A stretch of DNA of 64,000 nucleotides from Pseudomonadota bacterium (GTDB taxonomy: Bacteria; Desulfobacterota; Anaeroferrophillalia; Anaeroferrophillales; Tharpellaceae). Where the stretch lies: assembly GCA_034659215.1 (NCBI GenBank), contig JAYEGS010000244.1, positions 12,659 through 76,658 of the forward strand. The letters are read 5' to 3'. A program made the translations under genes and the position numbers. Shown one piece after another: positions 3,586 to 58,075 of this stretch (position 1 is its first letter; the number at the start of each line of letters is the position of its first letter). The notes under the pieces are model-generated. The model was not told the DNA's origin. It worked only from the letters and a program-made list of their open reading frames with translations, and did no database searches.

Positions 3586-5466
3586 TCAGGCAGCCGCTGC
3601 ACTTTTCTGCAAGCGACAGGAGTTGCGGTTAAAAACTATTTTCTCAGGCGCAATCCCCTTACTGACCAGATGTTGTTTGTCATGCTTATTGTCAACAATA
3701 ATAAGATCGGCCAGAGAAGCACTCCAGTCAATAAAGCGCTCCAGAAGCCGCCCCAGATCACTCTCATGCCAGAGCCTTTGTGAAGTTTTAATAAAACTTC
3801 GTTGATAGAGAAATGTGGATTTGATATTGAGAAGATGGGCCCCCGCCAGAACTGCTATTCCCATGGAGTTGGGAATTGATACGATGACCCTTTCCGCCTG
3901 AAGCTCTTCCAGACTGCGAAAAACTTCCAGAAAAGGGGGCAGCGGCAGCTCAAAAGCTGCTCCCTTGCCAAGCTTGACATAAGAAACCGGTTTAAAGTTG
4001 ACAATATCTGGGTCATTTTCAGCCTGATTCGGGTCACAGGTCATAGTTACAACCGAATAAAATTCACCAGCAGCAGCAATGGAATCACAAGAGGTATTTA
4101 TAATCCCGTTTAGCTGAGGCCTGAGTTTGCGGCCCGCAACAACAACACTCCGGGGAGATGTCTGAGGGAGGTCAAGTTCAGTTGCCAACTCTTTTAGAAA
4201 TAGATCGTCCTTGTGCTGGGTCGAGAAAGCGGCAAGATAGGGCGCTATCGCCAAAGCCACCGGCCCCAGAGCGGTGATTGTCTGCAAGGCATCAAACAGG
4301 TTTCCATGACGAAGGTGCCTAAGAAACTGCTCGACAAAACGCCAACTCAAGTGGTGGCAGATTTTACAGGAAGCCGCAAAAGATCTCTCCTGCGCCAGCT
4401 GATCGTCGAGGGCACTATTAAGCGACCTCGTAAAGAGCTGACCAATCTCATCAACAATCACTCTTTCGATCGGGGAAAACTGACGCTTTTTTCCGGCCCA
4501 GCATATTTTATCGACAAACAGTTTGTAACGACTCGGCCAGCTTTTCGGTTTATCGTCGTTCGGTGAAAGCAGATTCTGTAAAAAAGCTCCCAGCAGATCA
4601 TTGCTGATTTTTTTGTCAACCCCGAAACGGTCTTTATAATAACTGTAGGCAATTTTATAGAAGCTATGCGCAAGTTTCAGTGAATTGCCGGAACTGCCGC
4701 CCGGAAAACAGCGACCATTCGCAATATTTATAAGGTACTCAGACAAGTTTTCACCGGCAGAAGTTTCTGTCCAAGCCGTAGCTATAAAACTTCCGCTATG
4801 GTCATCACTGCCGCCGGTAAATGTTTTCAGCCAGGGCTTATAACCAATCGGCAAAAGATCATGTTTTGCCGACAGATCGTCAATCAGTTGCGGGGTCAGA
4901 GAACTGCAGATCAGCTTAAAGAGATCAGCTGCCCGAGGATCACGACTACCGTTGATAGCTTCAAAATGGGTAAACAGGAGGAGAAGTTTTTCGAGATGTT
5001 CCCGGTCAAGCCGGTCATCAACCCGAAAAAGAGGATGGGCTACCGAGTGAATGATTCTCTCCCTATCGATGTACCCCTTAAGATCGTAAACATTTTTTCG
5101 CAGATAGCTCAACTCAGCAAACTGTTTTTCTGAAATATCATACACCAGAATATGCAGTTTAGCCGGCACTTCGGGAAAATAGGTGGTAAGTTCGCAACTT
5201 AAAAAAGTATCGGCAAGATGCGAGATTTCCAGCGCACCTTCAATTTTATTATGGTCGGTTATCGTAACATAGTCCATACCTGAAGACTTTGCCTTGCGAT
5301 ATATCTCAAGCGGCTCAACATAACTTTCCGGTGCTCCAATCCGTCTGAGAAACCATTCACTGGGGCGATTTGAATATTTGCTGTGAACGTGTAAATCGAC
5401 TCTGGTGGTCATATCTTTCTCAAAAAATTGTTTTTTCCAGGTTGGCCTGACTTCATCAACGCCCAT
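3586..5466 (-). CDS. PHP (polymerase/histidinol-phosphatase) domain-containing protein
   Basis: N-terminal DLHVHSKYS...ITDHN metal-binding histidine motifs typical of the PHP fold. The long C-terminal region is unassigned. Confidence 0.6.
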   Translation of the reverse strand: MGVDEVRPTWKKQFFEKDMTTRVDLHVHSKYSNRPSEWFLRRIGAPESYVEPLEIYRKAKSSGMDYVTITDHNKIEGALEISHLADTFLSCELTTYFPEVPAKLHILVYDISEKQFAELSYLRKNVYDLKGYIDRERIIHSVAHPLFRVDDRLDREHLEKLLLLFTHFEAINGSRDPRAADLFKLICSSLTPQLIDDLSAKHDLLPIGYKPWLKTFTGGSDDHSGSFIATAWTETSAGENLSEYLINIANGRCFPGGSSGNSLKLAHSFYKIAYSYYKDRFGVDKKISNDLLGAFLQNLLSPNDDKPKSWPSRYKLFVDKICWAGKKRQFSPIERVIVDEIGQLFTRSLNSALDDQLAQERSFAASCKICHHLSWRFVEQFLRHLRHGNLFDALQTITALGPVALAIAPYLAAFSTQHKDDLFLKELATELDLPQTSPRSVVVAGRKLRPQLNGIINTSCDSIAAAGEFYSVVTMTCDPNQAENDPDIVNFKPVSYVKLGKGAAFELPLPPFLEVFRSLEELQAERVIVSIPNSMGIAVLAGAHLLNIKSTFLYQRSFIKTSQRLWHESDLGRLLERFIDWSASLADLIIVDNKHDKQHLVSKGIAPEKIVFNRNSCRLQKSAAAA

Positions 5467-5626
5467 AATTTATCTGTCCAAAGTTAAATTAAGTTAAAGA
5501 AAATATTAATTATTTTTAAAGAAAAAATATTTAGCAAGACAAAAAATTTATCTTATCTTAACGATTTCAAGTTATGAACTAGCCTTGATGCAATCCAATC
5601 AGGCCTAAAAAAGGAGGAAAACAATA

Positions 5627-6169
5627 ATGGCTTTTGTTAACAAGCAGGAGTTTGGTCTGACTTTCGGGGAAACCGATAGCCTGGTCAGCGAAATTGTTGA
5701 GCTCCTCAAAAAACATCATGTTTTCGACGAGGGCTATCCTGGTCGAGATCTGGTCGAGGCGGAGAAGGTAAAACTCTCTTTTCGCAAGAAGGAAGATGTT
5801 TCCAAAGTAAAACTCCAACTTCAATTCCCGGAAAAGTTCGAGTATAATCCGAAAAGTGAAAGGGAATTACTTGAAAATCCCAAACTTAAATACAGTAAGT
5901 TAAAAAAAATGATGAAAAAATCCTATGCCGAACTCTGCCGGGCAGTTCAGGATGATATTTTGCCGCCGGCAGATCTGGTTGGAAACTTCATTAATCAATC
6001 GGCAAAAATGGTGACCTACGGCGGCCGTGGTGATGAGCACTACGACCGATATTCCGACGCCTGTTTCAATTTCAAGCAGGCCTATGATGATGGCGACCAG
6101 GAAAAAATGAAGGCAGCTCTGGCACGGGTGCAGAAGATAAAAAAAGAGTGCCATGAGCACTACAAATAG
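5627..6169 (+). CDS. GAK-cluster small protein, possible XXXCH-domain protein
   Basis: RBS AAGGAGG 7 nt upstream. The C-terminus ends ...KKECHEHYK. It is the first gene of a co-directional cluster with ATP-grasp, HprK-like kinase, amphi-Trp and CofD-like genes. The domain assignment comes from memory of the TIGRFAM description. Confidence 0.4.
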   Translation: MAFVNKQEFGLTFGETDSLVSEIVELLKKHHVFDEGYPGRDLVEAEKVKLSFRKKEDVSKVKLQLQFPEKFEYNPKSERELLENPKLKYSKLKKMMKKSYAELCRAVQDDILPPADLVGNFINQSAKMVTYGGRGDEHYDRYSDACFNFKQAYDDGDQEKMKAALARVQKIKKECHEHYK

Positions 6170-6184
6170 AGAAACGGAGTCAAT

Positions 6185-7345
6185 ATGGGCATAGCCGACA
6201 GCCTGAAAATCGTACCGGTTTCAGGCAACCTTCCGGAAGTAGATCAAGATATCTGCGAAGCGGACGAAAAAAGATTTTTCAAAGTTGTATCTACTAAATT
6301 GAATGATCTCGAAACTCAACGAATAACTACGCCCGAAGAGGTGTACAAAAGAGAGGAGGAGGTGCTGGCAGTTCATTGGCACCCTGAGTTTATTCCTCTT
6401 GATCTGATTACCGAAAGAATCGAAAAACTCTACCCCAATCGCCGCCGTGAGCTGATCATCCCCACCCAGCACAACGTCATGCTGGATTACAACGGCTACT
6501 CCGGGGTGGAGGTTGATTGTTATTCAAGCGGATTTAATCGCAAGGTCCAGCTGTTAATTCACTTCAACTCCAGCTTAGTGCGCGACAAGGAGTGCGGGGT
6601 TTTCGAAAACATTCTCGAGCATACTTTCAAGTACCGCTCATCCCAGCTCTTCAGCTTCATGGGAGCCCTGACCAAGCCCAAGCAAGAATGGCTGGAAAAA
6701 GCGGCCCGCGAAACCGGCGCCCGACCGGAGCTGATCGATTTCATCGCCTCTCATGTTAAAAAAATAGAGTCTTTAATTGAACTTCACTACGATCACATAC
6801 CCAGAGCCAGCATCAAAAACAAACTTTTACGAAACTATTTTTATGAGCTTGCCGACACTCTTGATGAAGCTGTAATCATACGGATTCAGGCTTTTCTAAA
6901 GAGCCTCAAAGAGATTGTTAAGAAAAATTTTTCCCTGAAATTCTTCTATCGAACTTCAGAAATAATCGAGGAAGCCCGATCTCTGGGGGCAGGTATTGTA
7001 ATTCCTCACCCGGAACAGTTCTGGCCCATTCTGATGGCTGATTATGATGTCGATGGCTACGAAATCTGGAACCCTCAATCCCGTGAATACACAGAGTTCC
7101 TAATTTCGGTCTTAAATCGACGCAACTCCAACCATAAGGGTCGCAGACTCCTGGCATTCATGGGTGACGACACTCATTTTGGTGAAAAAATCAAACACCC
7201 TGATGAAAGAAAAAAAGAGAAAGGCGACCGGGAGATCGGACTGCAACCGGCTTGGAATGATCTTGCTATCAGTAAAGAGTTGATTAAAGCCGGTCTCAGC
7301 AAAACTCAGGTCATGGCCGAATACAGAGCTCGCCTGGACGGCTGA
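6185..7345 (+). CDS. hypothetical protein (GAK cluster member)
   Basis: ORF 16 nt after the previous gene, on the same strand. No recognisable motif. Confidence 0.5.
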   Translation: MGIADSLKIVPVSGNLPEVDQDICEADEKRFFKVVSTKLNDLETQRITTPEEVYKREEEVLAVHWHPEFIPLDLITERIEKLYPNRRRELIIPTQHNVMLDYNGYSGVEVDCYSSGFNRKVQLLIHFNSSLVRDKECGVFENILEHTFKYRSSQLFSFMGALTKPKQEWLEKAARETGARPELIDFIASHVKKIESLIELHYDHIPRASIKNKLLRNYFYELADTLDEAVIIRIQAFLKSLKEIVKKNFSLKFFYRTSEIIEEARSLGAGIVIPHPEQFWPILMADYDVDGYEIWNPQSREYTEFLISVLNRRNSNHKGRRLLAFMGDDTHFGEKIKHPDERKKEKGDREIGLQPAWNDLAISKELIKAGLSKTQVMAEYRARLDG

Positions 7346-7361
7346 AACTGGAGAAAAATTT

Positions 7362-7628
7362 ATGGATTCCAAAAAGTTCTCGCACATCTCAATTCAGGAT
7401 ACTGAAGCTGTTAAACTTTATCTTAAATCTCTAATTGAGGCCCTTGAAAAGAAACAGATCACTTTATCCTCCGGTAAAGAAAAAATGGAGATGACTGTAG
7501 GGGATTTATGCCGTGTCTCAATCCAGGCAAAGAAAAAAGGGCCTGAAAACAAACTCTCGATCAAGCTTAACTGGAAGGAAAACGGCAAACTGATGGAACT
7601 TTCGGAAGATGATGTCGAAATACTCTGA
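7362..7628 (+). CDS. amphi-Trp-like small protein, paralog 1
   Basis: 88 aa. It parallels the 85-aa ORF at 12653: acidic N-terminus, then K-rich, then a conserved Trp in KLNWKEN versus KLSWKQE. Confidence 0.5.
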   Translation: MDSKKFSHISIQDTEAVKLYLKSLIEALEKKQITLSSGKEKMEMTVGDLCRVSIQAKKKGPENKLSIKLNWKENGKLMELSEDDVEIL

Positions 7629-7646
7629 ACATCAAGGTATCGATAA

Positions 7647-9317
7647 TTGAGTAACGAATTTTACGAGATCCAGAATCTCGAAGATAATTTCAGCCTGCTC
7701 CTAACCGAAACTTCCAGTCAGGTGGAGCGCTCGTTCACGTTCATAGAGACTTTTTCGCAAGATCTTTACGAAAAGGTCGTCCAACGCGACGACTACATCG
7801 ACAACCTCAAGCTGACCATTGAAAATCAATGTTTTGACTCACTGCGTAAACTTACCAGTAAAAACAAAGAAGAGATGTCTCAGATTCGGGCGCGTCAGAT
7901 TATCTGCGTTAACCTGGAAAAGATCGCCGATTTCTGCGTCAATATCTGCAAGCAGGTTGAGTTTATCCACGATAAGGATTTCTGGCTACAATTCAGTTTT
8001 CAACCAATGTGCCGAATGATAGAGGAGAACCTCAAGCAAATCGAAGCTACCCTTAGCGAGAAAAGTGTGGCCAAAGCCATGATCATCTGCCGGTCGGAGT
8101 GTGAACTTGACGATCTCTTCAAGGAAAATTTTGACCAGATAATGCTTTTTCTCCGGACCGGAGAGCAGGTCGATACCTGCGTGACCACCCTCTTCATCTT
8201 CCGCTATCTCGAACGTATGGGGGACTCTCTGCTTAATATCGGAGAAGCAATACTGCTGGCAATACTGGGTGATAAAATAAAGATCCGTCAGTTTGAAGCG
8301 ATGCAGCAGAGCCTTGATCAATCAGGCATGGAGATTCCACCGGAAAAACTTGAAGTAAACTCATTTCTGGGAACCCGTTCCGGCTGCAATATAAGCCGAC
8401 TGGCAAACGAAGTTAACCAGGGTTTAAGCGATGAACGTCGGGAGGGTCTGTTTAAATCGGGAAACCCCGAGAAAATCGAGCGGGAAAAGGATAATATTGA
8501 AGAGTGGTCAAGGATAAAACCGGGCCTTGTGCCAAAGATATTCTCCTTCCAGAAAGAGCCGGACCGCAGTTCAATGCTGGTGGAATTTCTATCTGGCCAG
8601 ACACTTGAAGCTACGATAGTCTCCTGCAGCTGGCTGGAAATTGACCAGATTATGAATGAACTCAAGGCAAACATTGTTGAGATCTGGAAAAAAACCGCGA
8701 TCAGGAAACCGACTCCCACTAACTACATGGACCAGCTTTTAAAAAGAACTGAGGCGATCAGGACAATCCACCCTGATATCATGTCGGATGGTCAGATTAT
8801 TGGCGGAGTTGAAATCCCCTCGGCAGAAACTCTGGTAAAAAATTGCCGCCACTGGGAGAGCCGGACACCAGCCCCCTTTTCAGTCTTTGGTCACGGCGAT
8901 TTCAATGTTAACAATGTTCTCTATGATTTTGAGAAACAGGCCCTTCACTACATCGACCTCTACCGCTCACATCGGGCTGACTACCTGGAAGATGTTGCGG
9001 TTTTTCTGGTTTCCAACTTTCGCCTGCCGATTTTTGACCGGGAGACCCGTAAAAAAATCAACAAAACGATTATCAGCTTTTACGATTTTGCCCACGATTT
9101 TGCTCAAAAGAACAAGGATCAGACCTTTGCCCTGCGCCTGGCTCTGGCACTGGCAAGATCCTTCATGACTTCAACCAGATTTGAACAAAAACGAAAATTC
9201 TCCCGGGAGATGGGATTGCGCTCAACCTATCTTTTAGAAAGAATTGATCGACATTTGAGCAGCAATGGTTCACCGGTTGATTTTTCTTTCCCCAGGAGTA
9301 TACTTATCTTGCCCTAA
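7647..9317 (+). CDS. PhoU-like domain fused to a protein-kinase-like/APH-fold phosphotransferase
   Basis: N-terminus has PhoU signatures: DDYIDNLKLTIENQ and RYLERMGDSLLNIGE (compare ERIGDHATNIAE). C-terminus has HGDFNVNNVLYD, a kinase-like HGDxxxxN catalytic loop, and DLYRS (DxD-like). Confidence 0.55.
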   Translation: MSNEFYEIQNLEDNFSLLLTETSSQVERSFTFIETFSQDLYEKVVQRDDYIDNLKLTIENQCFDSLRKLTSKNKEEMSQIRARQIICVNLEKIADFCVNICKQVEFIHDKDFWLQFSFQPMCRMIEENLKQIEATLSEKSVAKAMIICRSECELDDLFKENFDQIMLFLRTGEQVDTCVTTLFIFRYLERMGDSLLNIGEAILLAILGDKIKIRQFEAMQQSLDQSGMEIPPEKLEVNSFLGTRSGCNISRLANEVNQGLSDERREGLFKSGNPEKIEREKDNIEEWSRIKPGLVPKIFSFQKEPDRSSMLVEFLSGQTLEATIVSCSWLEIDQIMNELKANIVEIWKKTAIRKPTPTNYMDQLLKRTEAIRTIHPDIMSDGQIIGGVEIPSAETLVKNCRHWESRTPAPFSVFGHGDFNVNNVLYDFEKQALHYIDLYRSHRADYLEDVAVFLVSNFRLPIFDRETRKKINKTIISFYDFAHDFAQKNKDQTFALRLALALARSFMTSTRFEQKRKFSREMGLRSTYLLERIDRHLSSNGSPVDFSFPRSILILP

Positions 9318-9320
9318 ACT

Positions 9321-9329
9321 AAATAACCT
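9321..9329. repeat. 9-bp target-site duplication AAATAACCT (left copy)
   Basis: Identical 9-mer at 10646..10654, immediately outside the IS inverted repeats. Confidence 0.7.
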
Positions 9330-10645
9330 CAGTGTTGTCCGGTTAGGAATTTGCATGTAAAAAATATAGAAGAAAATTGAAAATAATGTCATTTTTTACT
9401 TGACATTCGAGCAATAGTGCGCGCGCGATTTTACCTGTAATATCAACTACTTACAGGGGGAATTGTAAATGCCGCGCACTTTGTCACCAAAAAAATTTGG
9501 TCGATTACCATCGTTTAAATCAGTCCTCTTTCCGCTTACTGGAGCATCTTGTGGCGTTCCAGAATTAATATCTGGAAGTAATAGAGATTTGAAAATGACA
9601 TTTGAAGATCAACTTAAAGTTATGGTCTACTTCCATTTGAAAGATTTTAAGTCTGGTTGCCACCTGCTACAAGATCTACAGGAAGATGACTTTGCAAAAG
9701 AGTTTATAGCCCCCAATGGTGGAATCGGTAAAAGTACATTTTTTGATTCGCTAAACGAACGTGGCCTCGAACAATTCTTACACGTTTTTCAAAATCTGTT
9801 TAAACAAGCGAGTAATCAGATACCTAAAGAATTTTCTGAACTGGGAGATCTGGTTGCCATTGATGGTTCCCTGATCGATTCGGTTCTCTCCATGGTCTGG
9901 GCCGACTATCGCAAAGGGTCAAAAAAAGCAAAAGTCCATTTTGGGTTTAACGTTAATTGCTCTATTCCACAAAAGGTTTTTTTAACCGATGGCAATGGAG
10001 CCGAACGGCCTTTCGTTCAAAAAATTGTGGAACCAGGTCAAACAGGCATAATGGATAGGGGTTATCAAAGTCACGACCTGTTTGATCAATGGCAAGAAAA
10101 TGACGTCCATTTTGTCTGCAGAATCAAAGGCAATACTCAAAAAACTTGTATTAAAGAGCTTCCTTTTGAAACCGGGGGCGACATCTTCTATGATGCAGTG
10201 GTTCGCCTGGGTCAACCTGGCGTAAATGAGACTAAAAAGGATCTACGCCTGGTTGGTTATAAAATTGGCGACAAAAAATATTGGGTTGCGACCGACAGGT
10301 TTGATCTAACGGCTGAGCAGGTCGCCTTAATCTACAAACTGCGTTGGAACGTGGAATCTTTTTTTGCCTGGTGGAAACGCCATATGCGAGTATATCATTT
10401 AATTTCAAGAAGTAAGCATGGGTTAATGGTTCAAATATTATCAGGTCTTATCACATACCTGTTGCTCGCCATTTATTGTAACAATGAATTTGGCGAAAAA
10501 GTTAACATTAAGAGAGTGCGTGAATTACAAATAAAAATAGCCAATGAGATTCGCCAGCTGGATCAGGAACCTCCAGATTTTGATCCGGTGGAAGAAAACT
10601 GGACAGAACCATTATTGCAAGCAAATCTCTAACCGGACACCACTG
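9330..10645 (+). mobile_element. IS4-family insertion sequence (1316 bp), intact
   Basis: Left inverted repeat CAGTGTTGTCCGGTTA at 9330..9345. The right one at 10630..10645 reads CAGTGGTGTCCGGTTA as reverse complement, a 15/16 match. It is flanked by the 9-bp direct repeat and holds a single DDE transposase ORF. Confidence 0.8.
9469..10632 (+). CDS. IS4-family DDE transposase
   Basis: DDE residues lie in VAIDGSLID, IMDRGYQS and YKLRWNVESFFAWWKRH (the Y-x2-R-x3-E-x6-K IS4 signature). The stop codon overlaps the right inverted repeat. Confidence 0.85.
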   Translation: MPRTLSPKKFGRLPSFKSVLFPLTGASCGVPELISGSNRDLKMTFEDQLKVMVYFHLKDFKSGCHLLQDLQEDDFAKEFIAPNGGIGKSTFFDSLNERGLEQFLHVFQNLFKQASNQIPKEFSELGDLVAIDGSLIDSVLSMVWADYRKGSKKAKVHFGFNVNCSIPQKVFLTDGNGAERPFVQKIVEPGQTGIMDRGYQSHDLFDQWQENDVHFVCRIKGNTQKTCIKELPFETGGDIFYDAVVRLGQPGVNETKKDLRLVGYKIGDKKYWVATDRFDLTAEQVALIYKLRWNVESFFAWWKRHMRVYHLISRSKHGLMVQILSGLITYLLLAIYCNNEFGEKVNIKRVRELQIKIANEIRQLDQEPPDFDPVEENWTEPLLQANL

Positions 10646-10654
10646 AAATAACCT
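10646..10654. repeat. 9-bp target-site duplication AAATAACCT (right copy)
   Basis: Matches 9321..9329. Confidence 0.7.
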
Positions 10655-10682
10655 CTTACTCAACCTATTGAGGAATCAATAT

Positions 10683-11576
10683 ATGAAAATTGGAGTAGTA
10701 GGAACTGCCGGCGGCTGGTCATCTGAACTTCTCGCCGATAGAGTCGCTGAAAAGACCGGCTCCCGTCTCCTGATCGAGATGGACAGAACCCGGCTCGATC
10801 TGCCGGCCGGAAAACTCTGGTTCAACGATGTTGACCTGACAACTCTCGATGCCCTGCTGATAAAAAAAATCGGGCAGCGTTACTCGCCTGATCTCCTGGA
10901 TCGCCTCGAAATGCTGCGGATCTTGTCTAAAAAAGATGTTTTAATCTGTTCCGACCCGCTTAAAATCCTGCGCGTTCTGGATCGTTTAAGCTGCACTGTA
11001 ACCCTGCAGGAGAACGAAATACCGATGCCGGAAACTTCGATCACGGAAAATGTTGAACTTGCCGCCGCCATAATCCGGGATTATGGCGAAGCCGTACTGA
11101 AACCCCTCTACTCAACCAAGGCAAGAGGCATGACGATAGTAAGCGACGGCCCAGACCTTATTAAAGTGCTGGAAAATTACAAAAAAGAGAATACGATTAT
11201 CTATATTCAGAAAAAGATCGACCTGGGCGAGTTTGACCTGGGGCTGGTTTTTCTGGGCGGCAAATATCTGACCACCTATGCCCGCTGCCGCCAGGATAAA
11301 ACGGCATGGAACACAACCACAGCGGCCGGCGGTAAATACGCCGCCATTGATCCCGAACCGGAAGTTATTGAGCTTGCCCGCCAGGCTCAGGCACCCTTCG
11401 GACTCGATTTCACCTGTGTCGATGTTGCTCTGACAGATGCGGGGCCGGTAGTTTTTGAAGTTTCTGCTTTTGGTGGTTTTCGCGGCATCCTTGAAGCTCG
11501 AGGTCTGGATGCTGCTGCTCTTTTAACTGACTATGTAATTGAAAAAGTGGACAACCATAATGACACAAACAGCTAA
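10683..11576 (+). CDS. ATP-grasp enzyme (RimK/GshB-like), GAK-system type
   Basis: ATP-grasp fold motifs (LKPLYSTKARGM, IYIQKKIDLGEFDLGLVFLGGKY, ...FEVSAFGGF). Preferred start is the ATG at 10683 with GAGGA 8 nt upstream. The ORF-track TTG is at 10668. Confidence 0.7.
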   Translation: MKIGVVGTAGGWSSELLADRVAEKTGSRLLIEMDRTRLDLPAGKLWFNDVDLTTLDALLIKKIGQRYSPDLLDRLEMLRILSKKDVLICSDPLKILRVLDRLSCTVTLQENEIPMPETSITENVELAAAIIRDYGEAVLKPLYSTKARGMTIVSDGPDLIKVLENYKKENTIIYIQKKIDLGEFDLGLVFLGGKYLTTYARCRQDKTAWNTTTAAGGKYAAIDPEPEVIELARQAQAPFGLDFTCVDVALTDAGPVVFEVSAFGGFRGILEARGLDAAALLTDYVIEKVDNHNDTNS

Positions 11577-12651
11577 AAGTCTGAATCAACTGGCAGAAGA
11601 GTTTTTAAGTGGCGTTAGTCTTACGCAAACGCTATCTTTAAAATTTGAAGATTATCTCATCGGCATCCAGAGCAACTCTCACTCTTTGATTGAAAATTTG
11701 CGGCACTATTTCGCAGACTTTGTGGTTGAGGGTAGTGCGCCTGCACTTCTGGTGACAGCTATCGAGATGGAGCAACCTAAGTTTGACCTCCACTTTGAGA
11801 TCAAGGTTCCGGACCCCGGAAAAACTAAAATCAAGGAAGAATTTGTTAATATCGAAGGCGGCAGGATAGTCAGGAAACGCTTGACCGGCATGAGCTTTCT
11901 CTTCGGTGGCTCTATAAACCTGGCGCTTGGTCCATGCCGGGCAAACTCAAACCAGGTAATAAACTTTATCAACAACCGGTTTATCTCCTACAAACTTAAT
12001 CAGGGCTGCCTCCTCGGTCATGCTGCCGCTGTAACTGCAAACGGCAGAGGTCTGGCGCTGGCAGGATTTTCCGGGATGGGAAAATCAACCCTGGCCCTGC
12101 ACCTGATGAGTCGCGGCGTGAAATTTGTCAGTAACGACCGGCTCCTGGTTGACGCTGAGAGAAAAGATGAATTGAAAATGTACGGGGTTGCCAAGCTGCC
12201 GCGGATTAATCCGGGAACCGCTCTCAACAACCCCGACCTCGTCAAAGTTCTACCGGTCGATGACTACAAACGTTTCTCTCTGATTGAACAGGATGAGCTC
12301 TGGCAGGTCGAGCATAAATACGATGTTTTCATCGACGACTGCTTCGGCCCCGATCGTTTTCAGATTAAAGCTCAAATGAGCGCTCTGGTAATCCTTAACT
12401 GGCAACATAACGCTCCTGAAACCTTAATCAAACAAGCTGATCTCTCCCGACGACTGCAGATCCTGCCGGCTTTCATGAAGACCGCCGGCCTCTTTTATCT
12501 CGATGAGAGCAACCGAAACGAAGAGATGGAGAGGGTTGATTTTTACCAGGAACAACTCTCCTTATGCCCGATATATGAATTGAGTGGTAAAATTGATTTC
12601 AGCAAGGCGGCTGATTTGTGCATCTCATTATTAGAAGAGACGGAGCTATAG
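11539..12651 (+). CDS. HprK-related P-loop kinase
   Basis: LAGFSGMGKSTLALHLMSRGVKFVSNDRLLVD matches the HPr kinase/phosphorylase C-terminal P-loop pattern G-x-SG-x-GKS...DD. It overlaps the ATP-grasp gene end, consistent with translational coupling. Confidence 0.65.
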   Translation: MKKWTTIMTQTAKSLNQLAEEFLSGVSLTQTLSLKFEDYLIGIQSNSHSLIENLRHYFADFVVEGSAPALLVTAIEMEQPKFDLHFEIKVPDPGKTKIKEEFVNIEGGRIVRKRLTGMSFLFGGSINLALGPCRANSNQVINFINNRFISYKLNQGCLLGHAAAVTANGRGLALAGFSGMGKSTLALHLMSRGVKFVSNDRLLVDAERKDELKMYGVAKLPRINPGTALNNPDLVKVLPVDDYKRFSLIEQDELWQVEHKYDVFIDDCFGPDRFQIKAQMSALVILNWQHNAPETLIKQADLSRRLQILPAFMKTAGLFYLDESNRNEEMERVDFYQEQLSLCPIYELSGKIDFSKAADLCISLLEETEL

Positions 12652-12652
12652 T

Positions 12653-12910
12653 ATGTCTGAAAAAAAAGTGGACTTTACAACAAAGGGTGAAAACCAGGAG
12701 GTGGTTAACTATCTCTCCTCTCTGATTCAGGGTTTTGAAAAAAAGCGTCTTATCCTGACTCATGCCGATGATGAAGTTGTCCTCTACCCCGATGACGAAA
12801 TCACTTTCAAAGTCAAAGCCCGTCTCAAAAAAGGTGAAGCCCGGGTGGAACTGAAACTCTCCTGGAAACAGGAGGCAGAATCTGGTAAAGAGATCTTAAT
12901 CAGCAATTGA
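12653..12910 (+). CDS. amphi-Trp-like small protein, paralog 2
   Basis: 85 aa, paralogous to 7362..7628. Starts 2 nt after the kinase stop. Confidence 0.5.
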   Translation: MSEKKVDFTTKGENQEVVNYLSSLIQGFEKKRLILTHADDEVVLYPDDEITFKVKARLKKGEARVELKLSWKQEAESGKEILISN

Positions 12911-12981
12911 GATCACAGTTATTAACTGGATGGATATTCTCCGACGCAACTACTACTGTCTGAAAGCTTAAAAATGTTCAA

Positions 12982-14208
12982 TTGAGAATGAAACACAAAC
13001 AGTCCGAACCTAACACAAAGATTCTTATCAACCGGGAATTTTCGATTCCCGACCCGGAAAAACTGGAACTCTACCGCTCCAACCCTTCTCTTGGCCCGCG
13101 AATTCTTTTTTTCAGCGGGGGCTCGGCAATCCGCCAGCTCAGCACCAGGCTTATCAACTACACCTGGAACTCAATCCATTTAATAACCCCTTTTGACTCA
13201 GGAGGCAGTTCTGCCGTTTTAAGAGAGGCTTTTCGCATGCCGGCAATCGGCGACATTCGCAATCGTCTTATGGCCCTGGCGGACCAGTCAGTACTCGGCA
13301 ACCCTGAAATTTTCCGGCTCTTTGCCTACCGTTTACCAACTGCCGCTTTAGAAGATGATCTTCTAAATGAGTTTACCAGCATTCTCGAAGGCCGGCATGA
13401 GTTGGTTGCTGCCGTCTCATCACCGATGCGTAAGATCATCAGGCATCATCTTAAACTTTTCTCTGAACTAAAGCCGGAAAAGTTCAATCTCGCCGGTGCC
13501 AACATCGGCAACCTGGTCCTGACAGCCGGCTACCTTGAGAACCGCCGTCATCTTGACCCAACCATTTATATTTATTCGAAATTAGCCGAAGTGCGGGGAG
13601 TTGTCAGACCGGTTGTCAGCGTAGACTGTCACCTCGGCGCTGAACTTAACAATGGAGCAAGGATTATCGGTCAGCACCTTATCACCCGACAGAACAGAGC
13701 TAAAGCAAAGCAGCGAATAGAGAAAATATTTTTACTTGAGGCTGGAAATCCGGTTTCAGACATCAGTGATGAAATCTCTATACGTCCCAAAGTTGCTGAA
13801 CTGATCAATAAAGCGTCCATTATCTGCTACCCGATGGGAAGCTTTTTCACCAGTCTGATTGCCAGCCTGCTGCCTTCGGGGATTGGTTCGGCGCTAGCGC
13901 GAAGCCGAGCGCCGAAAATATACATTCCCAATACGGGAGATGATCCGGAAAGCTTTGGTTTAGACTTGATGGATCAGATCGATACCCTTTTAAACTATCT
14001 GAAGAGAAACAATTCCACCCTAGATGATAAACAACTGCTTAATTTCGTTTTACTTGACAGCAACGAAAAAAATTATACCGGCAAGCTCAATCCGGCAGAT
14101 CTTGAAGAGCGCGGCATCAGAATCATCCGCCGCAATTTAATCTCTGCCGCAAGCAAGCCATTGATCGATGCCGACCTTCTAACTGAAACCCTCCTCTCCC
14201 TCAACTGA
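12982..14208 (+). CDS. CofD-like / UPF0052 (YvcK-like) family protein
   Basis: ILFFSGGSAIRQL...ITPFDSGGSSAVLRE...IGDIRNRL matches the CofD/YvcK N-terminal signature. Confidence 0.7.
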   Translation: MRMKHKQSEPNTKILINREFSIPDPEKLELYRSNPSLGPRILFFSGGSAIRQLSTRLINYTWNSIHLITPFDSGGSSAVLREAFRMPAIGDIRNRLMALADQSVLGNPEIFRLFAYRLPTAALEDDLLNEFTSILEGRHELVAAVSSPMRKIIRHHLKLFSELKPEKFNLAGANIGNLVLTAGYLENRRHLDPTIYIYSKLAEVRGVVRPVVSVDCHLGAELNNGARIIGQHLITRQNRAKAKQRIEKIFLLEAGNPVSDISDEISIRPKVAELINKASIICYPMGSFFTSLIASLLPSGIGSALARSRAPKIYIPNTGDDPESFGLDLMDQIDTLLNYLKRNNSTLDDKQLLNFVLLDSNEKNYTGKLNPADLEERGIRIIRRNLISAASKPLIDADLLTETLLSLN

Positions 14209-14372
14209 CAATGGCCGGACAAAAGTTAACTAAATTCTTCTGCTACCATCTTGAAGATAATTTGATCGGCATTTTTCATCAAGCTCTCCCTCTCACCGAA
14301 TCAACCGAATCCGCTTTTTCTAAAGCAAACAGAGCCTGTTTGGGGCCAGCAACCCCTTTCTGTGCAGCCTCA

Positions 14373-14750
14373 TTAACGCTCTTGGTCCGTATGGTGCGCT
14401 GCATAACTGATTGCGCAATTTCCCCCGCACCACAGAACGTGCCATCTCCAGGGTAAAGAGCTCATCTTTAACCGATTTGAACTGTTTTTGCCGTAAAAAA
14501 CATTTTTCCCGGAGGCAAAGGCAAATTTACCGTTAAACTTTCCGTTTCGATGGAGAAAAACCGTATCGATCTGGTGCCGCATCAAAAGGTTAATCGCGGC
14601 ACTGGTAATCTCGATACGACCGACAATCACCAACTGCTCGGTCTTAAAGGGAAAGATCGACTTTAAAAGATCATCCCCTTTGCGCAGTTGCAGAACATCG
14701 CCCCTTTTTACCAGGCGCCCGTAATCAGAAACCACATAAATGATCGACAC
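14373..14750 (-). pseudogene. cas1: cas1 N-terminal remnant (truncated, ~90 aa Cas1-like then out of frame)
   Basis: MSIIYVVSDYGRLVKRGDVLQL...TEQLVIVGRIEITSAAINLLMRHQIDTVFLHRNGKFNGKFAF matches the Cas1 N-terminal beta-sandwich pattern (v-x-i-x-G-x-v-x-iT-x2-A-x2-L-x4-IP-v-x-Fl-x3-G-x-y-x-G). The ORF stops after 125 aa, whereas Cas1 is about 300 aa. No CRISPR array nearby. Confidence 0.5.
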
Positions 14751-15083
14751 ATTTTCACCTCAGCCAAAAAGGACAATACCAATACCTGCAAAAAAGTTAT
14801 CATGTCCAACCGATAGTGAAGCTTCATCATCAAGCAACAAGAGAATAGAGACTATCAGTTCATCCCGACTTTGGTCATCAACAATGAAAACCCCAAGAAC
14901 ACTGCATAGCTCTCTGAGTTCACCGTTTGACATCACTTCAAGCTGCTGCCGCCAATTCATGATTTCCATCTCCTCCTTCGCATCTACAACCAACCATTTT
15001 CTTCAGAAGGCTTTTTCCATCACAAGGGGAAAGAAGCAACGATTATTGAAGCCAGAAGGTCTCAATCCTTTTTTTCAGGTAAC

Positions 15084-15653
15084 TTGCTTGAACTCAAGGC
15101 ACAAATAGAAGCTGGGAGGAGCGAACTCACAAAATCGGCGCAAAGAAAAATTGAGAAGTACTTGGTTTGCTCGAAAAAAGGACGGGGCGGGCAGTTGAAA
15201 ATAGGCTTTGATGACAAGGCTATAGCCAAAGCAAAGAAGTACTTCGGCTATTTTGTGCTCGTCAGTAACCAGACCATGGACACGTTTGTCGCGCTAGAAA
15301 ACTATCGATTGCGAGAAAAAATAGAAGAACTGTTTGCTGTACAAAAGGGAGGGCTTGACGGTGCACGGCCACGCACATGGTATCCCGACAACCTGCGAGG
15401 AAGACAATTTGTGCAGTTTGTATCACTGGGCTACCATTGTTTCCTGACGAAGAAAATAAAAGAAGTACGGGCTAGACTTGGAAGGAATGAAAACGGAAAG
15501 ACTAAGGCTCTCATCAAACTCGAAAAGAAACTGGATCAATGGATTGAGCAACGCTCTCTTGCCCAAATTCTAGACTGGTTCGACTGTATTGAAACAACCA
15601 CCGTGCAGACTGCTATGGGCAACTATCGAATCGATGGTCTACCGAATCAGTAG
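15084..15653 (+). pseudogene. IS4/IS1634-superfamily transposase C-terminal fragment
   Basis: KKYFGYFVLVSNQTMD...YRLREKIEELFAVQK....ARPRTWY is the C-terminal E-containing block (Y-x2-R-x2-IE-x2-F) of IS1634-like transposases. The N-terminal DD region is absent. Confidence 0.5.
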
Positions 15654-16459: not shown

Positions 16460-17266
16460 ATGCAGATATTCGTCAATGAACATAGTTGTCAAGTTGAGGC
16501 GGAAACCCGGCTGTATGAGCTCCGAGATCGTCAGAAGCCGAATGCTGACCTGTTGATTGTCAACGGTTATCCGGTTAGTGAGGATCAACAACTTAAAGGT
16601 GGCGACCGGGTGGTGCTGATTCGGCGTGGTAAACAGCCGACGAGCGCTGATCTTGAAGCCCTGATGAGGGCTCGTCATACACCGGGCGTGCATGAGAAAA
16701 TTAAAAATAGTTGCGTCGGGATCGCCGGCGTTGGTGGGTTAGGTTCCAGTATCGCAATAGCCTTGGTTCGGGTCGGGGTCGGCAAGCTGGTGGTTGCTGA
16801 TTTCGACCTGGTCGAGCCTTCCAACCTGAATCGGCAGCACTATTTTATCGATCAGATTGGGTTGCCGAAAGTGCTGGCCTTGCAGGAAAGTTTACAGCGG
16901 ATCAATCCCGGCGTGCAAGTTGAAACAATTCAAGAGAGAATTACTCCGAAAAATCTGCTCATCCATTTTTCCACAGTTGATGTGATGGTTGAAGCCTTTG
17001 ATGCAGCCGATCAAAAAACGATGCTGATCAGCCACTTTTTGCGTGATTGTCCGCAAATACCGTTAGTCGCAGCCTCGGGGATGGCCGGCTATGCTCCCTC
17101 TAACAGTATCACAACGCGCAAGGCGGCTAACAATCTCTACCTTTGTGGTGATGGTATCACCGCAGTACTGCCGGGGCAAGGTTTGATGGCACCCCGGGTC
17201 GGAATTGCGGCGCACCATCAGGCCAATGCGGTCTTAAGGTTACTGCTTGGCGAAGAGCCGGAATAA
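16460..17266 (+). CDS. thiF: ThiS-like ubiquitin-fold domain fused to ThiF/MoeB-type E1-like adenylyltransferase
   Basis: N-terminus MQIFVNEHSCQVE...GGDRVVLIRRG is a ThiS/MoaD-like beta-grasp. After it comes the ThiF nucleotide-binding motif GIAGVGGLGS...DFDLVEPSNLNRQ. Confidence 0.7.
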   Translation: MQIFVNEHSCQVEAETRLYELRDRQKPNADLLIVNGYPVSEDQQLKGGDRVVLIRRGKQPTSADLEALMRARHTPGVHEKIKNSCVGIAGVGGLGSSIAIALVRVGVGKLVVADFDLVEPSNLNRQHYFIDQIGLPKVLALQESLQRINPGVQVETIQERITPKNLLIHFSTVDVMVEAFDAADQKTMLISHFLRDCPQIPLVAASGMAGYAPSNSITTRKAANNLYLCGDGITAVLPGQGLMAPRVGIAAHHQANAVLRLLLGEEPE

Positions 17267-17280
17267 GGAATTAAAAATTT

Positions 17281-17481
17281 ATGGATTTATGTGTCAACGG
17301 TCAGAATAGAGAATTTCCCCAACCGCTCAATGTCGAGCAGTTGCTTGAACATCTGGAGCTGAAGCCGGAGCGGATTGTGGTTGAACTGAACCGGGAGATC
17401 TTGACTATCGACAGACATGCCGACATTCAGCTCCAGGATGGCGACACGCTGGAGCTGATCCAGTTTGTTGGCGGTGGTTAG
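17281..17481 (+). CDS. thiS: sulfur carrier protein ThiS
   Basis: 66 aa ending in GG, with a MoaD/ThiS-like sequence. Sits just upstream of thiG. Confidence 0.7.
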   Translation: MDLCVNGQNREFPQPLNVEQLLEHLELKPERIVVELNREILTIDRHADIQLQDGDTLELIQFVGGG

Positions 17482-17559
17482 CAACTTATTCTTGAACTTC
17501 TGCCAAAAAAACCGCAAAGTACACACTAACTTTAGTTTCTTAAATGGGATATTATTATC

Positions 17560-18333
17560 ATGGATAAATTAATAATCGCAGGACGTTCCTTCAACTCACG
17601 GTTGCTGGTCGGTACGGGCAAATTTGCCTCGAACCAGGCGATGGTCGCGGCCATGGAGAACTCCGGTTCTGAAATCGTTACGGTGGCTCTACGCCGGGTT
17701 GATATTGACAATCCTGCGGATTCGCTGCTCTCCCATATCGACCGAAACCGTTATCTGTTATTGCCGAATACCAGTGGGGCCCGCGATGCTGAAGAGGCGG
17801 TACGCTTGGCCCGGCTGGCTCGGGCGGCGGGCTGTGAACCCTGGATCAAGTTGGAAGTTACACCCGATCCTTACTACCTGCTCCCGGATCCGATTGAAAC
17901 CCTGAAAGCGGCGGAAATCATGGTTAAAGACGGTTTTATCGTGCTTCCCTACATGCCGGCGGATCCGGTTTTGGCCAAACATCTGGAAGAGGCTGGAGTC
18001 GCAACTTTGATGCCGCTTGGAGCGCCGATCGGCACCAATCGGGGGGTTCGCACTCGCGATCTCATTGCGATTATTATTGAGCAGGCGACGGTGCCGGTGG
18101 TTGTTGATGCCGGTCTCGGGGCACCCTCCCACGCAGCCGAAGCGATGGAGATGGGGGCGGATGCGGTTTTAGTAAATACCGCACTTGCTGATACTCCCGA
18201 TCCTGCGGCTATGGCCCGGGCTTTTTGCAAAGGGGTTGAAGCCGGACGTGAAGCCTATCTTGCCGGGCTCGGGCCGCAGCGCCAAAAAGCGGAAGCCTCC
18301 AGCCCTTTGACCGGTTTTTTAAGGAATAACTGA
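17560..18333 (+). CDS. thiG: thiazole synthase
   Basis: [22 protein letters not shown]...[13 protein letters not shown]... is a typical ThiG TIM-barrel sequence. Confidence 0.85.
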
Positions 18334-19457
18334 TGAATTTTTTGTCACAATTGCAACAATATCCACAAAGCCAATTGCGCGAGCAAATTCTCTCCACAAC
18401 CGCATCGCAAATTGACCAGGCCTTGCGGCGGCAACGTTTAAGTCTGGAGGATTTTGCCTGTCTGCTTTCACCGCAGGTCAACGATGATCAGCTTGAGCAG
18501 ATGGCAAATCTGGCGCATCGGATTACGAGCCAACGTTTTGGCCGGATTATCCAACTTTATGCACCACTTTATCTCTCTAACGAATGTTGCAACGGCTGTA
18601 AGTATTGCGGTTTTAACGCCGACAATGATCTACCCCGCAAAACCTTATCGCTAGATGAGATTGAAAAAGATGCGAAAGTCCTACGCAAACAGGGCTTTCG
18701 TCACCTTCTGCTCTTGACCGGAGAGGCGCCGAAAGTGGCCGGAGTTGACTTTCTGGAAGCAGCCGTTAAGCGGATTAAACCGCTTTGCGGATCAATTTCG
18801 ATCGAAGTTTTTCCCATGGATAGGGACGGCTACACGCGGATGGTGGCGGCCGGGGTCGATGGTTTGACCGTCTATCAGGAAACCTACGATGCCGAGCTTT
18901 ATCGTGAACTGCATCCCTATGGGCCGAAAAGCAATTACAACTTTCGTCTTCAGGCACCGGAAGCGGCAGGAGAAGCCGGATTGCGGCGGATTGGTGTCGG
19001 TGCGCTGCTCGGGTTGGGAGATTGTCTGGCCGATGTGTTTTACACTGGTTTGCATGCTCTCTATCTGGCCCGACGTTTCTGGCGCACCCAAGTTACGATC
19101 TCTTTTCCCCGGTTGCGTCCGGCGGAAGGAGGTTTTCAGCCGCGCAGTCTGGTTTCCGACCGGCAACTGACCCAATTTATTTGTGCTCTGCGGCTCCTGA
19201 TTCATGATGCCGGGCTGATTCTTTCAACCCGCGAAAGTGCTGCGTTACGTGATAACCTGCTGCCGCTGGGAATCACTCAGATGAGCGCCGGTTCCTGCAC
19301 CGCCCCCGGCGGTTATAGTGACGATAGTAATGAAGGCGAACAATTTTCGATCAGCGATCACCGAAGCCCGGCCGAGCTGGCCGAACTTCTCGCGGCTCGC
19401 GGCTATGAAGCGGTCTGGAAGGATTGGGATAACGCCTTCCTCGAACAAGCTTCTTAA
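18333..19457 (+). CDS. thiH: 2-iminoacetate synthase (radical SAM)
   Basis: CNGCKYCGF radical-SAM cysteine motif and ThiH-like length. Overlaps the thiG stop. Confidence 0.8.
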   Translation: MNFLSQLQQYPQSQLREQILSTTASQIDQALRRQRLSLEDFACLLSPQVNDDQLEQMANLAHRITSQRFGRIIQLYAPLYLSNECCNGCKYCGFNADNDLPRKTLSLDEIEKDAKVLRKQGFRHLLLLTGEAPKVAGVDFLEAAVKRIKPLCGSISIEVFPMDRDGYTRMVAAGVDGLTVYQETYDAELYRELHPYGPKSNYNFRLQAPEAAGEAGLRRIGVGALLGLGDCLADVFYTGLHALYLARRFWRTQVTISFPRLRPAEGGFQPRSLVSDRQLTQFICALRLLIHDAGLILSTRESAALRDNLLPLGITQMSAGSCTAPGGYSDDSNEGEQFSISDHRSPAELAELLAARGYEAVWKDWDNAFLEQAS

Positions 19458-27454: not shown

Positions 27455-27730
27455 ATTATAATGTCACTTTGTAACTATTCTGCTAACCCGAAAATTCAGG
27501 GGACATATATCAATATATGTTACATCGTAACTATTCAGCGTAATGTACTCTTCAAACTATCTCGATACGGGGACATTGCTCCAGGCGGCGGCTGCTAAGC
27601 CTTTATGCCGGTCTGAGCTGCGCTGTGAGCGAAGCGAGGAAGTACTCTTGGGGTGTGTCCCCCTCGAAGCCGGGCGAAGCCAATGTTCGCACCATTTGCA
27701 GTGGCTTTAAGGTAATCACGCTGAATAGTT
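27455..27730. repeat. MITE-like element, family A core flanked by 15-nt TIRs GTAACTATTCAGCGT / ACGCTGAATAGTTAC
   Basis: Left TIR at 27527..27541 and right TIR, its exact reverse complement, at 27711..27725. An extra partial left end is at 27463..27480. The core is shared with 41021.., 46036.. and 57985... Confidence 0.65.
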
Positions 27731-37254: not shown

Positions 37255-37400
37255 CGTTTTAAATGCGTATTCGGGCGTATTCCGCGTGGTATTCGAGGTA
37301 TTCCGGGGACACCATACTTAACTATTATTAAATATGGAACAATTATTGTAACTTTTTATCTAACCCGCAAACTCAGGCTACACAATCTCGATTTTCTTCG
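37255..37400. repeat. intergenic repeat modules (D: GTATTC tandem + ATTCCGGGGACACC; B-like TTGTAACT..TAACCCG..TCAGG)
   Basis: D matches 55040..55095 and the reverse complement of 57925..57975. The B-like part matches 27463..27495. Confidence 0.6.
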
Positions 37401-40935: not shown

Positions 40936-41020
40936 GCCCTCTGGGCTGAGTAGTTACAAAAAAAGTTTGTTGACTTGTTACTGGAAACTTATTAAGGCTG
41001 ACGGCTTCGTGAAAACTCCA

Positions 41021-41235
41021 CACTATCTCGGTGTGGGGTCAGACCTCCAGGCGCCGGCTGTAAGCCGGTTGCCGATCTGAGTTTGCGCCCTGAGCGATAG
41101 CGAGGAAGTGCCCTTGGGGTAACCGTCCTCGAAGCCGGGCGAAGCCAAAATAACAACTTTGCCGCTTTTAACTTAATGCGGTTGGCGCGAACATCACTTT
41201 GCCCTCTTCTAAGGGGTCTGACCTCCAGGCCGAAG
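41021..41235. repeat. repeat family A copy 2 (with internal duplication of the GGGGTCxGACCTCCAGGC head)
   Basis: It shares CTATCTCGGTG.GGGG.CA.ACCTCCAGGC...CTGAGC...TCCTCGAAGCCGGGCGAAGCC with the other A copies. Confidence 0.65.
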
Positions 41236-46038: not shown

Positions 46039-46175
46039 AAATTCGTAACTATTCAGCGTAGTATCGTCTTCAAGCTATCTCGGTGCGGGGACATACCTCC
46101 AGGCCGGGCTTTAGCCCGTGACGAGCTGAGCTGTGTCCCCCTCGAAGTGGGCGAAGCGATGTTCGCATCATTTGT
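46036..46175. repeat. repeat family A copy 3 with left TIR only
   Basis: CGTAACTATTCAGCGTAGTATCGTCTTCAAGCTATCTCGGTGCGGGGACATACCTCCAGGCC... Confidence 0.6.
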
Positions 46176-55039: not shown

Positions 55040-55100
55040 GCAAAGTTACCTCTAATTCCGGGGCTCGGAATTCCGGGGACACCTTACTTATCTTTCACAA
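55040..55100. repeat. repeat module D (tandem AATTCCGGGG(A/C)...) plus a solo TIR fragment at 55153..55170
   Basis: CTAATTCCGGGGCTCGGAATTCCGGGGACACCTTACTTA. GCTGAATAGTTGCG at 55156 resembles the family-B TIR. Confidence 0.55.
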
Positions 55101-57840: not shown

Positions 57841-58075
57841 CCGCCATTTGTCAAGATGTGACCTCGATAGTGGTCGCGAAGCAAAGTTCGCGGTTGCTCG
57901 CTTCTACCTTTCATGGCAGGTTTTTCTGAGTTAGGTAAGGTGTCCCCGGAATTCGGTGTCCCCGGAATTCGGAAAACTTCACTCTTGCTCGGTGTGGGGA
58001 CAGACCTCCAGGCGCCGGCTGCAAGCCGGTTGCCGCTCTGAGCTCTGTCCCCTTCGAAGCCGGGCGAAGCCCATA
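57782..58075. repeat. composite of repeat modules E (57782..57905), D inverted and tandem (57925..57975) and A copy 4 (57985..58075)
   Basis: Matches 37805.., 55056.. (reverse complement) and 27561.. / 41021.. respectively. Confidence 0.6.

Follow-up and report, generated by a model that had tools for sequence, protein, structure and literature searches.

The stretch of contig JAYEGS010000244.1 analyzed here, 64,000 nt long and called the window below, carries an eight-gene cluster of the GAK system with an insertion sequence (IS) of the IS4 family in one of its spacers. All five GAK models of NCBIfam (TIGR04354 to TIGR04358) score above cutoff in this cluster, with 432 bits for the ATP-grasp protein (TIGR04356; cutoff, 300), 497 bits for HprK-related kinase B (TIGR04355), 491 bits for the CofD-like protein (TIGR04357), 58 bits for amphi-Trp (TIGR04354), and 89 bits for XXXCH (TIGR04358), and all eight genes are full length (Table 1). 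The stop codon of a PhoU-domain/APH-like kinase fusion gene lies 12 nt ahead of the IS, and the ATP-grasp gene follows it. The initial annotation had described the operon as split between these two genes, with the right end of the IS 16 nt upstream of a GAGGA ribosome-binding site (RBS); both points hold, and the cluster is uninterrupted in its IS-free relatives.

Three such relatives, L005 (ENA ERZ28505417), L006 (Logan ERR15087783), and L007 (Logan ERR15087767), were reached via two other members of the 90% cluster of the ATP-grasp protein. They have the same eight genes without the IS and are 92 to 94% identical in nucleotide sequence to the window flanks. The gene order of the window is that of L005, L007, and Paucidesulfovibrio longus. 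P. longus has a kinase/ATP-grasp spacer of 20 nt and an ATP-grasp protein 66% identical to that of the window; because it shares the gene order, this spacer is a junction within the operon, and the insertion is the derived state. Among the loci examined, the interrupted GAK cluster occurs in this lineage only. The ATP-grasp protein of the window is identical to the recorded MEA1923115.1, from a metagenome-assembled genome (MAG) labeled Pseudomonadota bacterium. The exact lookup gave this match from the ATG at 10683 and none from an upstream TTG start, and a scan of contigs of GTDB-representative genomes with the protein returned no relative. A full-text literature search found no paper describing the function of the GAK system.

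A more distant GAK cluster, with an ATP-grasp protein 71% identical, is present in L071/L072 (JGI Ga0212126_1000072; ENA ERZ27245514) at 4254 to 5945 and 8217 to 9083. Its PhoU-kinase fusion is called as three open reading frames (ORFs; 164, 265, and 111 aa) and its CofD-like gene is shortened, features that may reflect either decay of this GAK locus or frameshift errors.

Table 1. Features of the window, in window coordinates
Feature	Positions	Strand	Remarks
XXXCH-domain protein gene	5627-6169		GAK cluster
386-aa unknown-protein gene	6185-7345		GAK cluster
amphi-Trp gene (proximal)	7362-7628		GAK cluster
PhoU-domain/APH-like kinase fusion gene	7647-9317	+	556 aa; last proximal gene; intact; same length as L005 orthologue
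Left target copy, AAATAACCT	9321-9329	none	Direct reading; single-copy at the homologous position in IS-free L005, L006, and L007
Left terminal inverted repeat (IRL)	9330-9363	+	Core 9330-9346, CAGTGTTGTCCGGTTAG; core kept in ~40 related copies
TTGACA hexamer	9400-9405	+	TTGAC invariant in 25 related IS copies; possible -35
Conserved transposase leader structure (predicted)	9411-9485	+	Minimum-free-energy (MFE) folds, covariance models
Transposase gene	9469-10632	+	387 aa, no frameshift; TAA stop inside the right inverted repeat; Pfam, NCBIfam, alignment
Right terminal inverted repeat (IRR)	10612-10645	-	Core 10629-10645, reverse complement CAGTGGTGTCCGGTTAG
Right target copy, AAATAACCT	10646-10654	none	Direct reading; blastn
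GAGGA RBS	10670-10674	+	16 nt past the right duplication
GAK ATP-grasp gene	10683 (ATG) to 11576	+	297 aa; first distal gene; intact; TIGR04356
HprK-related kinase B gene	to 12651		GAK cluster
amphi-Trp gene (distal)	12653-12910		GAK cluster
CofD-like gene	to 14208		GAK cluster
Dispersed repeats	27525-27684, 41011-41149, 46043-46162, 57972-58074
Dispersed repeat pairs	40763-40940/54866-55026; 37837-37924/57802-57889; 24868-24945/57471-57548
24-51 nt motif	37297-37323, 55043-55093	+
24-51 nt motif	57929-57979		Reverse complement

Structure and relatives of the element

Read from the window sequence, the IS is complete and spans 1316 bp on the plus strand (9330 to 10645); the 64-kb window holds one copy of it. 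IRL reads CAGTGTTGTCCGGTTA and IRR, as reverse complement, CAGTGGTGTCCGGTTA, a match at 15 of 16 positions that is as good as the initial annotation had claimed. With the next base included, the two cores match at 16 of 17, the single difference being a G for T by which IRR departs from both IRL and the relatives, and a repeat finder extends the imperfect repeat to 34 nt (28 matching). With up to 3 mismatches allowed, the motif occurs at two places only in the window, both of them ends of the IS. The two 9-bp target copies outside these ends are identical, as had been stated. Their 9-mer occurs four times in the window, compared with 0.75 expected, and these two alone form a pair abutting the inverted repeats. 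The match continues for a tenth base (C) past the right copy; because about 40 related copies start with CAGT and end with ACTG, we assign this C on the left to the IS and set the duplication at 9 bp. The GC content of the IS is 39.9%, versus 45 to 48% in the flanking operon.

The transposase has the length of most of its close relatives. It scores 89.1 bits against Pfam PF01609 (DDE_Tnp_1; cutoff, 23) and 200.3 bits against NCBIfam NF033592 (transpos_IS4_1; cutoff, 115), and it falls far under every cutoff of the NCBIfam models for IS701, ISH3, IS1634, IS5, IS982, and IS1380. An alignment with IS4Bsu1 and ISGme2 among its members shows no variation at residues D132, D196, and E296 or at those of the signature Y289-x2-R292-x3-E296-x6-K303, bearing out the intact DDE and Y-x2-R-x3-E motifs and the IS4-family membership proposed at the outset. 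The catalytic residues were assigned by motif and alignment rather than by structure, a PDB sequence search with the transposase having found no solved relative. IS4-family members are characterized by an unframeshifted transposase, the YREK signature, and duplications of about 10 bp (De Palmenaer et al. 2008, PMC2266710). The 9-bp duplication of the window lies within the IS4-family range of about 8 to 13 bp, compared with 4 to 6 bp for IS701, ISH3, and IS1634. By its family membership, the element would transpose by cut-and-paste via a hairpin intermediate.

Within the family, the IS4Sa subgroup comprises elements of 1150 to 1750 bp with ends CA------T and direct repeats of 8 to 10 bp (PMC2266710, Table 1), and the window element agrees with it in size, in its ends (CAGTGTTGT and CAGTGGTGT), and in its duplication. 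It appears to fit this subgroup by these DNA features and by distant similarity to IS4Bsu1. The best named matches in the plasmid collection were IS4Bsu1, ISTeha5, and ISGme2, at about 25 to 28% amino acid identity. We take IS4Bsu1 to belong to the IS4Sa subgroup. A copy of it in Bacillus (NZ_CP026534.1, annotated as "IS4-like element IS4Bsu1 family transposase") is 1406 bp long and shares with the window element the CA start, a 9-bp duplication (ATATTTGAT), and the aligned DDE and YREK residues. All three named elements differ from the window element in their low identity and in their terminal repeat sequences, and the latter probably represents a separate, apparently unnamed IS clade.

Relatives of the element are numerous, with more than 5000 transposase homologues, and the clade is abundant in sulfate-reducer-type metagenomes. 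Unannotated copies from JGI metagenomes and a Thermodesulfobacteriota MAG come nearest, with 93% amino acid identity; Desulfosarcina widdelii PP31, whose genome is complete, has copies at 60%. An exact-sequence lookup of the transposase gave no match, and a scan of contigs of GTDB-representative genomes gave no identical copy. Perfect 9-bp duplications flank 14 of the approximately 42 complete two-ended copies, that is, the window element and 13 others, including all three copies of D. widdelii PP31 and the two complete copies that a complete Latescibacterota chromosome carries. The targets of these 14 copies average about 73% A+T, which suggests that the clade loosely prefers AT-rich DNA such as intergenic spacers. 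The closely related copies L003, L008, and L022 to L025 lack matching flanks. Copies of this kind sit mostly on short metagenome contigs, and the mismatch is probably due to chimeric metagenome assembly of a repeated element; these copies were set aside as uninformative, and the duplication length was taken from complete genomes. Overall, we consider that positions 9330 to 10645 very probably constitute one complete, apparently functional IS, and its sequence marks it as a genuine, well-delimited member of the IS4 family that is probably still mobile. No observation conflicts with this identity.

Empty site and timing of the insertion

The IS-free relatives preserve the site as it would look without the element. 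Their kinase fusion stop codon is separated from the ATP-grasp ATG by 41 nt (L005 and L006) or 32 nt (L007), and the spacer holds a single target copy, AAATAAACCT in the former two and AAATAATCT in the latter. An empty site reading ...CTAAACT AAATAACCT CTTACTC... had been predicted, and the contexts found, ...CTGAACT AAATAAACCT TTCACTC... in L005/L006 and ...GGAACT AAATAATCT CTGACTC... in L007, follow it nearly letter for letter. Being single-copy in these relatives, the direct repeat does not belong to any longer native repeat. Once the IS and one repeat copy are removed, the window aligns collinearly with L005 to L007, the reconstructed empty site being CTTATCTTGCCCTAAACTAAATAACCTCTTACTCAACCTATTGAGG. 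In blastn alignments, L007 20 to 3768 corresponds to window 5601 to 9330 and L007 3759 to 7393 to window 10646 to 14262, with the single L007 target (3759 to 3768) aligning to both duplicated window copies; the collinearity of L005 and L007 with the window is broken exactly at 9330 to 10645.

Could the junctions be artefacts of assembly, in which a repeated IS was joined to the contig in error? Metagenome assemblies often misjoin at repeats, several related metagenome copies have nonmatching flanks, and the Logan contigs that carry the junctions (L001, L002, and L004, from SRR26901930 and SRR26901924) end inside the IS. However, the left and right junctions were both recovered in these independent assemblies at 99.97 to 100% identity, which excludes a misjoin in the window contig. 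The flanks, moreover, together make up one conserved operon, and a true insertion would be expected to leave precisely such a 9-bp duplication. An artefact is thus barely credible.

Another history would have the IS ancestral at this site and lost from the relatives by precise excision, with one target copy left behind. IS elements are known to excise precisely between short direct repeats, and the three lineages are roughly equidistant, so the tree alone does not polarize the event. Such a history would, however, need at least two independent precise excisions, in the L005/L006 lineage and in the L007 lineage, in place of one insertion. The distant P. longus also has the kinase and ATP-grasp genes adjacent, and the IS is undecayed, with a GC content unlike that of its flanks. 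We therefore regard an ancestral IS as very improbable.

By sequence comparison, the insertion is derived and took place after the split from lineages 6 to 8% divergent in DNA. The DDE transposase would have moved the IS by cut-and-paste into the AT-rich kinase/ATP-grasp spacer, where staggered cuts 9 bp apart would have given rise to the duplication of AAATAACCT. The initial annotation called the event recent, and the lack of decay (perfect duplication, intact ORF, and near-perfect ends) agrees with this, as does the divergence of the IS-free lineages, but these bound its age only loosely. Runs SRR26901930 and SRR26901924 have no recorded contig in which identical flanking proteins surround an empty site. 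The event is a real but ordinary insertion of a thoroughly known kind, in which a specialist would find nothing surprising. Since the IS boundaries, the 9-bp duplication rule of the clade, and the empty site are all fixed, naming and masking of the element become possible, and annotation of the GAK operon should call it interrupted rather than degraded. For an operon without described function, this allele amounts to a natural perturbation.

In L007, the stop codon of the kinase fusion is altered from TAA to GGA. The ORF there is 9 codons longer (565 aa) and ends at a TAA within the IS-target sequence (L007 3759 to 3767).

Transposase leader and operon expression

The start of the transposase gene is predicted to lie within a conserved leader structure (Table 1). 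Its outer helix pairs 9411 to 9424 with 9471 to 9484 (the G of the AUG and codons 2 to 5), its middle helix pairs 9425 to 9431 with 9460 to 9466, and its inner hairpin pairs 9434 to 9440 with 9451 to 9457, so that the fold would enclose the Shine-Dalgarno (SD) sequence GGGGGA (9456 to 9461) and the AUG (9469 to 9471). Folding of 9300 to 9520 gave z = -2.8, with 9416 to 9424 paired to the G of the AUG and codons 2 to 4. RNAalifold predicted no structure from a plain MAFFT alignment of 25 leaders because indels shift the arms out of register, and it was replaced by per-sequence folds, a cognate/noncognate duplex test, and covariance-model alignments. Nearly all 25 distinct leaders of the clade share this architecture in their MFE folds, although their paired sequences differ; the outer arms, for example, read AGUGCGCG/CGCGCACU in the window but UAUGCGGC/GCCGCAUA in L034. 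Duplexes between the upstream arm and the start region have an energy of -12.25 kcal/mol when cognate versus -9.13 kcal/mol when noncognate (Mann-Whitney p = 5e-7, for copies that are not phylogenetically independent). In the covariance-model alignments R1 and R2, 88 to 91% of cells are paired and 15 to 16 of 27 pairs show compensatory changes on both sides, counts that are biased towards structure since these alignments are fitted to the model; none of 500 shuffles was as high, and slid controls reached 33 to 48%.

The TTGACA hexamer sits 6 nt upstream of the structure, where it has no canonical -10 at 16 to 18 nt and was not called by the promoter scan. As a -35 element, it would have transcription begin around 9435, within the 5' arm. 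The leader is predicted, on computational evidence only, to occlude the SD sequence and start codon of the transposase.

An imperfect palindrome, TGTCA-N9-TGACA (9385 to 9405), overlaps TTGACA and is kept in several subclades (e.g., L003, L027, and L037). It could be a protein-binding site instead of a -35 element.

Leaders of this kind have precedents. In IS10 and IS50, known from the work of Kleckner and Reznikoff, fold-back of the mRNA hides the transposase start and selectively blocks read-through transcripts. In IS200, a leader hairpin sequesters the transposase SD sequence (PMC4513863), and IS10 also makes 9-bp duplications (PMC2266710, Table 1). The window leader likewise is predicted to enclose the SD sequence and the AUG but has no detectable sequence relation to the leaders of these elements. 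Whether it would block selectively, as in IS10 and IS50, or constitutively, as in IS200, would depend on the position of the transcription start. The promoter scan gave no antisense promoter directed at the transposase start. The covarying leader structure is the sole mildly new item here, and a modest wider value may lie in an abundant clade with a conserved structure that would hide the transposase start.

How would the insertion affect the genes behind it? It breaks no ORF, stop codon, or RBS, its site being a spacer of 32 to 41 nt in the IS-free relatives, and the transposase gene, which reads in the same direction as the operon, stops 51 nt ahead of the ATP-grasp ATG. With the ORFs and RBS undamaged and the orientation shared, transcription from the operon promoter would have to cross 1.3 kb of IS to reach the ATP-grasp, HprK-related kinase B, amphi-Trp, and CofD-like genes. 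The leader fold would probably keep transposase translation low, especially on read-through transcripts, with the side effect of about 1.3 kb of untranslated RNA before the ATP-grasp gene that would be open to Rho-dependent polarity. Transcripts started within the IS would run through IRR into the distal genes, since the consensus scan found no terminator-like site from the transposase stop codon to the ATP-grasp ATG. Most likely, the distal half is still expressed, though less strongly and in a partly uncoupled manner. We infer these expression effects from sequence, from which Rho-dependent polarity is not predictable.

The initial annotation had suggested that the IS might either polarize expression of the distal half or drive it from an outward promoter. 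Neither can be demonstrated from sequence, and promoter-like and terminator-like sites occur in the consensus scan at chance frequency only, which supports neither an outward promoter nor an intrinsic terminator. Strong polarity would leave the distal GAK half effectively off and drifting to pseudogenes. IS insertions within operons are classically polar, read-through transcripts with an occluded transposase start would carry an untranslated stretch of about 1.3 kb, and a candidate native promoter-like site (9277 to 9304) is now parted from the ATP-grasp gene. However, the four distal genes are all full length, intrinsic terminators are not in excess, and the co-oriented transposase gene ends so close to the ATP-grasp gene that IS-initiated transcripts should read out. 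Among lineage-specific codon changes, the ratio of nonsynonymous to synonymous changes (N/S) is 0.36 in the distal genes of the window, 0.61 in its proximal genes, and 0.40 to 0.49 in the IS-free lineages, with no sign of relaxed selection on the distal genes (Fisher p = 0.57 versus the IS-free lineages), a test that would be weak for a very young insertion. Strong polarity is thus unlikely, though it deserves serious consideration.

Outward and hybrid promoters are well known in other IS families, and the orientation of the element and the intact RBS downstream are compatible with a mobile promoter, whereby a promoter at the right end would drive the distal genes and the insertion would have been selected for it. 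Neither the final 400 bp of the IS nor the right junction, however, gave a sigma-70-like site in the consensus scan, and the sole -35-like hexamer seen by eye near the end (TTGCAA, 10615 to 10620) has no -10 at 16 to 18 nt. The insertion, furthermore, is known in a single lineage only. With scan counts at chance and nothing at the right end, this idea was not adopted, and we consider it quite improbable.

A bolder extension of the partly uncoupled state would be that the leader of the IS clade is a dedicated, covarying RNA switch and that the distal GAK half is rewired to the IS promoter, a tentative proposal that we hold to be possible but doubtful. If it were true, the switch would let the IS sit co-oriented in transcribed operons without activation by host read-through, and host transcripts would become untranslated, Rho-sensitive RNA. 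The natural "split-operon" allele could then help to dissect the two halves of the GAK system.

Downstream region and dispersed repeats

Further IS debris about 5 kb downstream had been taken as a sign of an insertion hotspot. The ORF at 15084 to 15653 (plus strand) scores 94.9 bits against the IS1634 transposase model NF033559 (cutoff, 100) over profile positions 305 to 455 of 483 and has no Pfam match; judging by this alignment, it is probably the C-terminal part of an IS1634-family transposase, in line with the "debris" of the initial annotation. The adjacent upstream ORF at 14740 to 15108 has no family match. On the minus strand, a 125-aa ORF at 14373 to 14750 matches only the N-terminal 85 or so residues of Cas1 (TIGR00287, 44.5 bits, below cutoff, profile positions 3 to 84 of 327) and, judged by this match, is a truncated cas1 remnant; repeat searches found no clustered regularly interspaced short palindromic repeat (CRISPR) array anywhere in the window. 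Both fragments lie just past the end of synteny, where similarity to L005 stops at 14231, just past the CofD-like gene, and that to L007 reaches 14262, near the end of its own contig; past the CofD-like gene, the lineages thus differ throughout. The region downstream of the operon is therefore variable and bears debris, which is suggestive, but two events do not establish a hotspot.

Thiamine biosynthesis genes occupy 16460 to 19457, with a ThiF-like gene at 16460 to 17266 and ThiH at 18333 to 19457. At the Rfam gathering threshold, no thiamine pyrophosphate (TPP) riboswitch was detected in the window, nor was any other Rfam match, and the window contains no tRNAs.

Farther along, intergenic gaps between housekeeping genes (e.g., LpxD, a ComM-like gene, LeuRS, and SelA) contain dispersed repeats of 60 to 140 nt, which fall into several families with 80 to 93% identity (Table 1). 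Their common blocks include CTCGGTGYGGGGACA..CCTCCAGGCGCCGGCTG..GCCGG and CCTCGAAGCCGGGCGAAGCC. They have no Rfam match, and the fold of a four-copy consensus shows no compensatory changes; they may be elements resembling miniature inverted-repeat transposable elements (MITEs) or repetitive extragenic palindromic (REP) sequences, or else a structured RNA. Adjoining them in both orientations is a motif of 24 to 51 nt (GGTATTCCGGGGACACC...TTAACT), and a tandem of two GGTGTCCCCGGAATTC units is present at 57939 to 57972. The motif looks like the terminal repeats of a small nonautonomous mobile element.

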